DNA from: Alphaproteobacteria bacterium
GTDB lineage: Bacteria; Pseudomonadota; Alphaproteobacteria; SMXQ01
DNA: 64,000 nt
Assembly: GCA_050485485.1 (NCBI GenBank)
Contig: JBJHBM010000005.1
Span: forward strand, 11,877 to 75,876
Direction: 5' to 3'
Within the stretch, counting starts at the first letter, position 1. Each line of letters begins with the position of its first letter. Both the position numbers and the translations under genes were made by a program. Shown here in pieces: positions 35,323 through 36,525 of this stretch. Under the pieces are notes generated by a model. It was not told where the DNA came from and made no database searches. It worked only from the letters and a program-made list of their open reading frames with translations.

Positions 35323-36525
35323 ATGTCCACGGGGCTGCCAGCGGGCGAAAGGCCGACGCGGGAGGCCGAGAGCGTACCCGGACACGAAGTGGAATCCGAT
35401 GGTGGCCGTGGCCGCGCGGCGATCGACTTCCTGGGCAAGTGCGTCCATCACGCCGCCTGGCGCTTCCGGTTGCTCGAATACGCCTGGACCCTGGTCGAGC
35501 GTGAGATCGACTCCGCCTCGCCCGTGCCTTGGCGCAAGCGTTTCGCCTTGTGGCGTCGTGGATTCCTCAGCGAATCGGCAATCCTGTACGGCTTCCCTCA
35601 CAACGATTCACGCCTTTACCTCTCCGACTACGCGCGCGGCGTGAAGACGCGCCGCATCAACGGCGCCTATGGCGTGCTGCTCGACGACAAGCTTCTGTTC
35701 GCCCGTCTGCTGCGCGATCACGCGCGCTATCTGCCGACGGTGTTCGGGGTTCTCCGTAATGGGCGTATCGTGCCGGCGCTCGGCGTCGGAGCGCCGGTCA
35801 GCGACGCGACGCTCCACGACCTGCTCGCGCGCAAGCGCGCGGTCGTGCTGAAGCCGGTGAACGGCGGTGGCGGCGCAGGCGTCGTCGTCCTGCAGATCGA
35901 TGGCGACGGCGTGCTGCGCATGAACGGCGCCGCCATAGGCCCGGCCGCCCTCCACGACGTGGCCGCCGCCTGCGACGGACACCTGGCTTGCGCTCTCTTG
36001 CGCCAGCACCCTGCGCTGGCCCGAATCTATCCGCACACCACGAACTCTGTCCGCATCCTCACGATGCACGACGACGACGGGGTATTCATCGCCGCGACCG
36101 TATTGCGGATCGGATGCGGCCGGTCGAGGCCCACCGACAACTGGGGCAGGGGCGGGATGGCGGCGTCCATCGATCCGCACACCGGGCGCCTGGGCCGCGC
36201 GGCGTCCTATTGTGCCGACGAGGCGGCGCTTCATTGGCACTCCCACCACCCGGAAAGCGGCGCGCCCATCGAAGGGGCGGTCCTTCCCCATTGGCGGTTG
36301 ATGCGCGACGTGATCCTGGGCATCGCCCAGTCGCTGCCGTTCCTTCCCTACATCGGCTGGGACGTGGCGATGACGGAAGACGGCTTCCGCATACTCGAAG
36401 GCAACAAGTACAGCGACGTCCACATCCTCCAGGTCCACAAGCCGTTGCTTGCCGACGGCCGCGTACGCGCGTTCTATCGTTCCCATGGCGCCATCGGCGG
36501 CAAGCCCGGCAAGGATTCCGGCTAG
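35323..36525 (+). CDS. sugar-transfer-associated ATP-grasp family protein
   Basis: ATP-grasp core (…AVVLKPVNGGGGAGVVVL…YIGWDVAMTEDGFRILEGNKYSDV) resembling the ATPgrasp_ST family. Start 3 bp after the upstream stop. Confidence 0.6.
   Translation: MSTGLPAGERPTREAESVPGHEVESDGGRGRAAIDFLGKCVHHAAWRFRLLEYAWTLVEREIDSASPVPWRKRFALWRRGFLSESAILYGFPHNDSRLYLSDYARGVKTRRINGAYGVLLDDKLLFARLLRDHARYLPTVFGVLRNGRIVPALGVGAPVSDATLHDLLARKRAVVLKPVNGGGGAGVVVLQIDGDGVLRMNGAAIGPAALHDVAAACDGHLACALLRQHPALARIYPHTTNSVRILTMHDDDGVFIAATVLRIGCGRSRPTDNWGRGGMAASIDPHTGRLGRAASYCADEAALHWHSHHPESGAPIEGAVLPHWRLMRDVILGIAQSLPFLPYIGWDVAMTEDGFRILEGNKYSDVHILQVHKPLLADGRVRAFYRSHGAIGGKPGKDSG

Follow-up and report, generated by a model that had tools for sequence, protein, structure and literature searches.

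The window analysed here, a 64,000-nucleotide, GC-rich (~67%) stretch of the alphaproteobacterial contig JBJHBM010000005.1, contains at 35323–36525 on the forward strand a gene for a 400-residue ATP-grasp ligase of the PF14397 (ATPgrasp_ST) family. This family member stands in a previously undescribed conserved arrangement, together with a QueC-fold PP-loop enzyme that no database model describes and a dedicated flippase. We propose, with a probability of about one half, that the PP-loop enzyme, the ATP-grasp protein and the Wzx-type flippase form a cassette that puts amide decorations on a cell-surface sugar polymer; the cassette is best classed with the polysaccharide-tailoring amidoligases. 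The proposal draws on family membership, folds, intact motifs, a conserved tight junction, a co-diverging flippase and the polysaccharide habitat of the PP-loop family, each of which is established below, and from which we infer what is modified, by which chemistry and in which order.

The ATP-grasp protein and its PP-loop partner

The open reading frame at 35323–36525 is a real, intact gene, with a GC content of 0.70, 0.50 and 0.84 at the three codon positions; the third-position value is high, as in the neighbouring genes. Directly upstream on the same strand lies the partner gene (34073–35320), encoding a 415-residue QueC-fold PP-loop ATP pyrophosphatase. As read from the sequence, its TGA stop codon occupies 35318–35320 and the ATG of the ATP-grasp gene begins at 35323, leaving a spacer of 2 nucleotides (gg, 35321–35322) where a preliminary description of the locus had given a gap of 3 bp. 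The GAGG that it had reported before the ATG is present twice, at 35311–35314, 8 nucleotides before the start codon, and at 35319–35322, abutting it; a distance of 8 nucleotides is normal Shine-Dalgarno spacing. The junction as a whole (35311–35325, forward strand) is a candidate site of translational coupling. An in-frame GTG at 35389 offers an alternative start, with a weaker ribosome-binding context than the ATG. A longer, GTG-started reading frame from 34936 overlaps the upstream gene and takes in a region that the homologues do not cover; it was rejected because their conserved core starts at about residue 36 (FLGKCVHHAAWR). Residues 1–35 are variable among homologues and form a disordered extension with low pLDDT (predicted local distance difference test) values. 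Promoter and terminator scans of 33700–36800 found neither element.

The protein matches PF14397 with an E-value of 5.3e-41 and 141.1 bits (cut-off 31.4) across residues 115–372, which align to positions 13–264 of the 278-position profile, so that its earlier description as a sugar-transfer-associated ATP-grasp is borne out. The AlphaFold2 model (mean pLDDT 89.4) shows a helical N-terminal region, spanning residues ~28–136 and replacing the classical pre-ATP-grasp domain, followed by the ATP-grasp core. In an alignment of 36 homologues, K123, K177, R244, D347, E359 and Q370 are invariant and N361 nearly so. K177 is located in a VLKP motif and E359 and N361 in an ExN motif; the conserved residues, D347, E359 and N361 among them, are predicted to serve in nucleotide and Mg binding. 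The gene product is most likely an active carboxylate-amine ligase of PF14397. Like other members of the family, it has a full-length domain far above the gathering score, with the fold and the Mg/ATP motifs intact.

Structural comparison of the model supported the ATP-grasp fold anticipated in the preliminary description. A Foldseek search of the PDB returned 241 chains at E ≤ 1e-3, and the best 50 of these 241 are all ATP-grasp enzymes. The matches are remote, with E-values of 1e-6 to 1e-5 and template-modelling (TM) scores of 0.3–0.4, and include PGM1-like peptide ligases, Ddl, LysX/ArgX and RimK. Searching the PDB by sequence or by profile gave nothing meaningful. In keeping with the preliminary description, the protein is not a RimK-, glutathione-synthetase- or glutathionylspermidine-type enzyme of known function. 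The RimK-related model TIGR02291 scores 36 bits (E 3.7e-9), below its cut-off of 314.2, GSH-S_ATP reaches 14.6 bits (cut-off 23), the equivalogs of glutathione synthase reach ~13 bits (cut-offs ~270–300), and GSP_synth gave no match in the Pfam and NCBIfam scans. TupA-like PF14305 is absent from the Pfam matches at E ≤ 1. The RimK and TIGR02291 alpha-L-glutamate ligase-like proteins share a distantly related ATP-grasp core with the window protein (TM ~0.4 to RimK in Foldseek), but their N-terminal domain differs and the typical cassette partners of the TIGR02291 system are absent.

The family, reportedly defined by Iyer et al. in 2009, has many members: searched with a profile, 1.84 billion representatives yielded 13,357 matches at E ≤ 1e-3, 4,462 of them at E ≤ 1e-30. 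Full-text literature searching found no paper mentioning PF14397 and no characterised member. The top matches include fused double ATP-grasp proteins, and among the 146 best representatives only such tandem double ATP-grasps, and no ATP-grasp/PP-loop fusion, were found. PF14397 genes often occur in tandem, in 2–4 copies (L006 8481–13419, L007 8838–11107, L091 6919–9134), or as fused double-domain genes (proteins P0178–P0181 and P0185), which hints at stepwise, multi-residue ligation. The run in L006 adjoins a gene for an Orn/DAP decarboxylase.

The partner protein comprises an N-terminal alpha/beta domain (residues 1–105), a PP-loop, CCFSGGVDS, at residues 123–131, and a C-terminal helical domain; it also carries the cysteine motif C289-x8-C298-x2-C301-x2-C304. 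All 40 aligned homologues keep the FSGGVDS, TN(L)R, HGAALA and PWGSSPLLDPLWS motifs and the four cysteines (C289, C298, C301 and C304) without change. Its three-dimensional fold is QueC-like, QueC being the best fold match. The two proteins share the SGGxDS motif and a four-cysteine motif, the latter compared with what we take to be the spacing in QueC. At the sequence level, no Pfam model matches the partner at E ≤ 1, the sole NCBIfam match is a faint one to AsnB at the PP-loop (E 0.19), and sequence and profile searches of the PDB gave nothing meaningful and did not recover QueC. Its 120 best homologues all lack a precomputed Pfam domain, and wherever a source gives a name, it is "hypothetical protein"; the family has neither a Pfam nor an NCBIfam model. 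The partner also differs from QueC in its extra N-terminal domain of ~105 residues and its C-terminal helical domain. The earlier label "QueC-like" therefore holds for fold and motifs, but by sequence the protein is outside the QueC family, whose sequence models it does not match. The fold is also similar to that of Cap9, the QueC-like protein of type IV CBASS (cyclic-oligonucleotide-based antiphage signalling systems). A role in a defence system was considered and rejected; PADLOC matches neither protein.

QueC-type PP-loop enzymes adenylate a carboxylate, after which ammonia or an amine displaces AMP, and QueC itself takes a carboxylate to an amide and on to a nitrile in an ATP-dependent manner. 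In ATP-grasp enzymes, the intermediate is an acyl-phosphate, which is joined to an amine with release of ADP and Pi. The preliminary description had spoken of a "second adenylating enzyme", which would have the ATP-grasp protein adenylate its substrate as well; this does not agree with the established chemistry of its class.

Conservation of the pair and of its flippase

In every visible context of ATP-grasp relatives with at least 47% identity, the PP-loop gene lies directly upstream. The window's own contig in another assembly (L003) has an identical ATP-grasp protein (100%) and the same 2-nucleotide gap. At 64% ATP-grasp identity (L001 and L096), the two genes share an ATGA overlap; at 58% (L094) and at 48% (L004 and L005), they overlap by 17 nucleotides; and in L095, also at 48%, they are separated by 4 nucleotides. 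The tight junction that had been noted in the window is therefore kept in L001, L096, L004, L094 and L095, with translational coupling itself as its candidate consequence. P0005 and P0080, both from 6542-bp contigs, were also counted toward the pairing. The PP-loop proteins of L004 and the window share 54% identity. A scan of genome contigs with a single-protein query led to two loci only, and a further homologue search with alignment A1 gave no new members.

The third gene of the cassette (32330–33922, reverse strand) is divergent from the pair and encodes a flippase of the polysaccharide transporter (PST) type within the multidrug/oligosaccharidyl-lipid/polysaccharide (MOP) superfamily. It matches Polysacc_synt_3 (PF13440, E 4e-76) and Wzx models, and not those of multidrug and toxic compound extrusion (MATE) proteins; matches to the NCBIfam MOP flippase and TuaB-like models are below their cut-offs. 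Its start is either the GTG at 33922 or position 33853, as in the 507-residue call in L003. The flippase is 68% identical to the window protein in L001, 64% in L094, 55% in L004 and 41–43% in L007, which parallels the divergence of the pair. In the window, L001/L096 and L094, its gene is upstream of the pair and divergent from it; in L004 it is a few kilobases away, and in L007 it stands between the PP-loop and ATP-grasp genes. Flanking genes other than the wzx-type gene are not conserved among the related loci, and no conserved small open reading frame accompanies the pair.

The intergenic region between the flippase and PP-loop genes contains a perfect 21-bp inverted repeat (33922–33999), in which CAGTGACCAGACTGTGACCGG (33922–33942) is followed, after 36 nucleotides, by its reverse complement (33979–33999). 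The repeat gave two matches against zero expected and an RNA fold z-score of −5.8, and no Rfam family matches it. Its right arm holds a box, GTCACAnnCTGGTCACTGG, that is kept upstream of the PP-loop gene in L001 (8608–8655) and L094 (~4500–4560). We regard the repeat as a putative operator or leader hairpin for the cassette.

Compact bacterial operons commonly leave little space between genes, and the arrangement could in principle be a chance adjacency of unrelated genes. We consider this extremely improbable, because the adjacency is kept across diverged loci in which the ATP-grasp proteins are 48–64% identical; the co-diverging flippase and the upstream box are kept as well, in flanks that are otherwise unrelated.

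Two of the more distant loci place the three genes in an explicit biosynthetic setting. In L007 (44% identity), the PP-loop gene, the wzx gene and two ATP-grasp genes stand in a full exopolysaccharide (EPS) cluster, which also holds GT4-family glycosyltransferases, a pyruvyl transferase, epimerases and a polymerase-like protein. L004 and L007 both carry the orthologous trio within glycosyltransferase-rich EPS clusters. Some orthologues of the window protein are thus located in EPS clusters; in the window, the only adjacent polysaccharide gene is that of the Wzx-type flippase. Compared with most of PF14397, the sub-clade of the window protein is set apart by being joined to a QueC-fold PP-loop gene and travelling with its own flippase.

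Habitat of the PP-loop family and the weighing of alternatives

To place the PP-loop family more widely, a metagenome collection was scanned with the PP-loop alignment, and 80 loci with 29–53% identity were kept (L009–L088). Their genes were clustered and 114 immediate neighbours were scanned against Pfam. Among these neighbours, polysaccharide pyruvyl transferases (PF04230) lead with 17, ahead of nine GT2 and five GT1/GT4 glycosyltransferases, four Asn_synthase-like (AsnB-like) proteins and three Wzx proteins. A polysaccharide pyruvyl transferase is present in 29 of the 80 loci, recognisable polysaccharide genes occur in 33 of the 51 loci that have at least five genes, and tandem PP-loop paralogues are found in 12 of the 80. 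Examples of the pyruvyl-transferase and tandem trend are L019, L020, L023, L029, L038, L051, L056, L060 and L064. The 25 commonest Pfam families of the 114 neighbours include none from the queuosine pathway. From this census and the L007 cluster, we conclude that the PP-loop family belongs to surface-polysaccharide biosynthesis; unlike QueC and Cap9, the partner and its relatives inhabit polysaccharide clusters and not queuosine or defence loci. The adjacency to pyruvyl transferases suggests that the family acts on the carboxylates of pyruvate ketals.

The pairing itself has a narrow distribution. A PF14397-family ATP-grasp gene occurs in none of the 80 metagenomic PP-loop loci. Two of these, L009 and L010, are syntenic with L004, sharing NTP_transf_5, a PqqD-HprK-like fusion, the PP-loop gene and an OpgH-like GT2 gene, but they lack the ATP-grasp gene. 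In L004 (6340–8591 and 12054–14843), L009, L010 and L095, the PP-loop gene is flanked by the fusion of PqqD with an HprK-related kinase A, by NTP_transf_5 and by an OpgH/MdoH-like glucan glucosyltransferase, the last with a score of 699 bits, above its cut-off. ATP-grasp relatives with 35–45% identity stand alone, amid mobile elements, after an arylsulfotransferase gene, or in tandem pairs and quartets. The pairing is probably a feature of a small clade, likely an alphaproteobacterial one; the closest named sources of homologues are Rhodospirillales-type genomes and metagenome-assembled genomes.

Several observations weigh against a role in decorating a surface polymer. The window, L001/L096 and L094 have no glycosyltransferase or sugar-nucleotide gene closer than ~10 kb to the cassette, and the nearest other envelope or sugar genes of the window are 20–30 kb upstream of it. 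The PqqD-HprK-like fusion, which elsewhere marks peptide-binding systems, lies near the pair in L004 and near the PP-loop gene in L009. Three ATP-grasp proteins with 41–45% identity (L089, L090 and L092) are encoded in unrelated contexts that are not of the polysaccharide type. Finally, Shumkonia mesophila (L098 8001–9257, JAOTID010000002.1) has an orphan PP-loop gene, 59% identical, with no flippase, ATP-grasp or glycan gene within 8 kb. We hold the probability of our proposal at one half because the closest loci lack nearby glycosyltransferases, some relatives have peptide-associated genes, and neither family has been characterised biochemically.

The peptide-associated genes raise the alternative that the cassette modifies a peptide or protein. 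The ATP-grasp enzyme would add amino acids, as RimK and the graspetide ligases do, the QueC-like enzyme would conjugate or amidate a protein carboxylate or amine, as Cap9 of CBASS does, and the MOP-superfamily protein would export the product. In L004, L009 and L010, the PP-loop gene has the PqqD-HprK-related kinase A fusion and NTP_transf_5 as neighbours, which would suit such a role; so would the protein-lysine-methyltransferase-like gene that adjoins the pair in the window, and the weak similarity to TIGR02291 (E 3.7e-9), although the score of 36 is far from the cut-off of 314. We nevertheless judge it unlikely: no conserved small open reading frame is found near the pair, the flanks other than the wzx gene are unconserved, PST/Wzx-type transporters carry lipid-linked glycans, glycosyl and pyruvyl transferases predominate around the PP-loop genes, and PADLOC gave no match.

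The runs of 2–4 ATP-grasp paralogues and the tandem fusions would also be expected of stepwise oligo-amide assembly, and the L006 run beside the Orn/DAP decarboxylase gene would fit such chemistry. The two ligases might then build a small metabolite held together by amide bonds, such as a conjugate of an amino acid or a polyamine, which the MOP-superfamily protein would export; the lack of glycosyltransferases in the cassette at the closest loci and the Dph6-like amidating enzyme and thioesterase beside the window cassette are in keeping with this. This explanation is distinctly unlikely in our estimation, since the transporter fits Polysacc_synt_3/Wzx and not MATE, glycan clusters house the PP-loop family in most informative loci, and the orthologous trio is carried inside EPS clusters in L004 and L007.

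The division of labour between the two enzymes was also considered. The preliminary description had read their coupling as a single two-step ligation, with one protein activating a carboxylate and the other transferring it to an amine. The tight, conserved junction does suggest stoichiometric co-production and possibly a complex. However, both enzyme classes are established to activate and ligate in a single active site. The two families are overwhelmingly found apart, as in the 80 metagenomic loci, the Shumkonia mesophila orphan and the 13,357 ATP-grasp representatives, and no two-domain fusion occurs among the 146 best of the latter. An obligate two-enzyme reaction is accordingly very improbable. 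Because the families mostly occur apart, each enzyme is probably self-sufficient, and the pair more likely carries out two separate ligations on one substrate.

Proposed role of the cassette and comparison with known systems

For the decoration of a surface polymer, we envisage that the cassette would act at the cytoplasmic membrane face, on an oligosaccharide repeat unit linked to a lipid (undecaprenyl-PP). There the QueC-like enzyme would first adenylate a pendant carboxylate, which may sit on a uronic acid, on an acyl side chain or in a pyruvate ketal, and convert it to an amide with release of AMP and PPi. The ATP-grasp enzyme would then form a second amide bond through an acyl-phosphate, with release of ADP and Pi; it might attach or extend an amino-acid or amine substituent, or install a group bearing the carboxylate that the QueC-like enzyme then amidates. 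Finally, the co-evolving flippase would export the decorated unit. In a variant of this scheme, a carboxylate-installing enzyme would make the pendant acid and the QueC-like enzyme would amidate it, the installer being a pyruvyl transferase in most loci and the ATP-grasp enzyme in the clade of the window.

A bolder version is offered tentatively, as a possibility that we rate well below even odds. In this version, the trio and its conserved operator box would be a portable glycan-tailoring cassette, whose repeat unit is made elsewhere in the genome and exported by the cassette's own flippase. The QueC-fold family, with hundreds of members that are often in tandem and have pyruvyl transferases as their most frequent neighbours, would constitute a new polysaccharide-modifying class. 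From pendant carboxylates, those of pyruvate ketals for example, it would make amides and perhaps nitriles.

PP-loop enzymes of surface-polysaccharide clusters are known from the "N-acetyl sugar amidotransferases" WbpG, PseA and WbuX and from the AsnB-like WbpS, which form amidines or amides on sugars in an ATP-dependent manner. The best functional analogue of the window protein is the C-terminal domain of Cj1438 from Campylobacter jejuni, likewise an ATP-grasp. This TupA-like domain amidates the glucuronate of the C. jejuni capsule, forming the amide between glucuronic acid and serinol phosphate or ethanolamine phosphate during capsule biosynthesis (PMC11800379). Cj1438 differs from the window protein in belonging to another Pfam family (PF14305), in being fused to a GT2 domain and in having no PP-loop partner. 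A further precedent is the Vibrio polysaccharide (VPS), in which glycine is amide-linked to a uronic acid (PMC12993940).

Downstream of the flippase and on its strand, the window carries a gene for a 4HBT_2 thioesterase and one for a Dph6-like (diphthine-ammonia-ligase-like) PP-loop ATP pyrophosphatase (together 31083–32271, reverse strand). The Dph6-like gene (31564–32271, reverse strand; PF01902, E 4e-24) has TIGR03679 and PAB0415 family scores below their cut-offs and represents a third carboxylate-amidating type of enzyme at the locus. It is absent from L001, L094, L004 and every other fetched locus, and is possibly an accessory specific to the window. Convergent with the ATP-grasp gene lies a methyltransferase gene, followed by one for a Sel1-repeat protein (36547–38183, reverse strand). 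The methyltransferase resembles the archaeal protein-lysine N-methyltransferase model NF041081 (149 bits, cut-off 200). A Sel1-repeat protein with 33% identity is encoded near the cassette in L001, and the corresponding L096 gene has a faint Sel1 match. None of L001, L094 and L004 shares the Dph6-like gene, the thioesterase or the methyltransferase, the only similarity being the weak one of the Sel1-repeat protein to L001.

Further away, genes for a pcm-like methyltransferase, a TolC-type outer membrane protein, DUF2497 and valS stand in a row at 38579–44363, an order that we take to be typical of alphaproteobacteria and that fits the taxonomy of the closest homologues. On the other side, at ~27900–29540 (L003 2622–4212), an ArsR-type regulator, an ArsC-like low-molecular-weight phosphatase and a MIP-family channel make up an arsenic-resistance-like operon that adjoins a UbiD-family decarboxylase gene. 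The envelope and sugar genes 20–30 kb upstream of the cassette (3857–6330 and 10638–11753) encode a BBP2_2 beta-barrel porin, an NAD-dependent sugar epimerase/dehydratase and a heptosyltransferase-like protein of the GT9 family.

When bacterial surface polysaccharides carry amide-linked amino acids or amidated acids, this affects their charge, their recognition by phages and lyases, and the serotype, and we know of no enzymes behind most such decorations. The locus presented here is a small testable unit of two soluble enzymes and one flippase, and it brings together a PP-loop family that lacks a database model and an uncharacterised ATP-grasp family of over 13,000 representatives. Shumkonia mesophila, with its orphan gene, is cultured, and the solo function of the PP-loop enzyme is testable there. 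One characterised pair would annotate thousands of "hypothetical" genes and could reveal new sugar-carboxylate chemistry.

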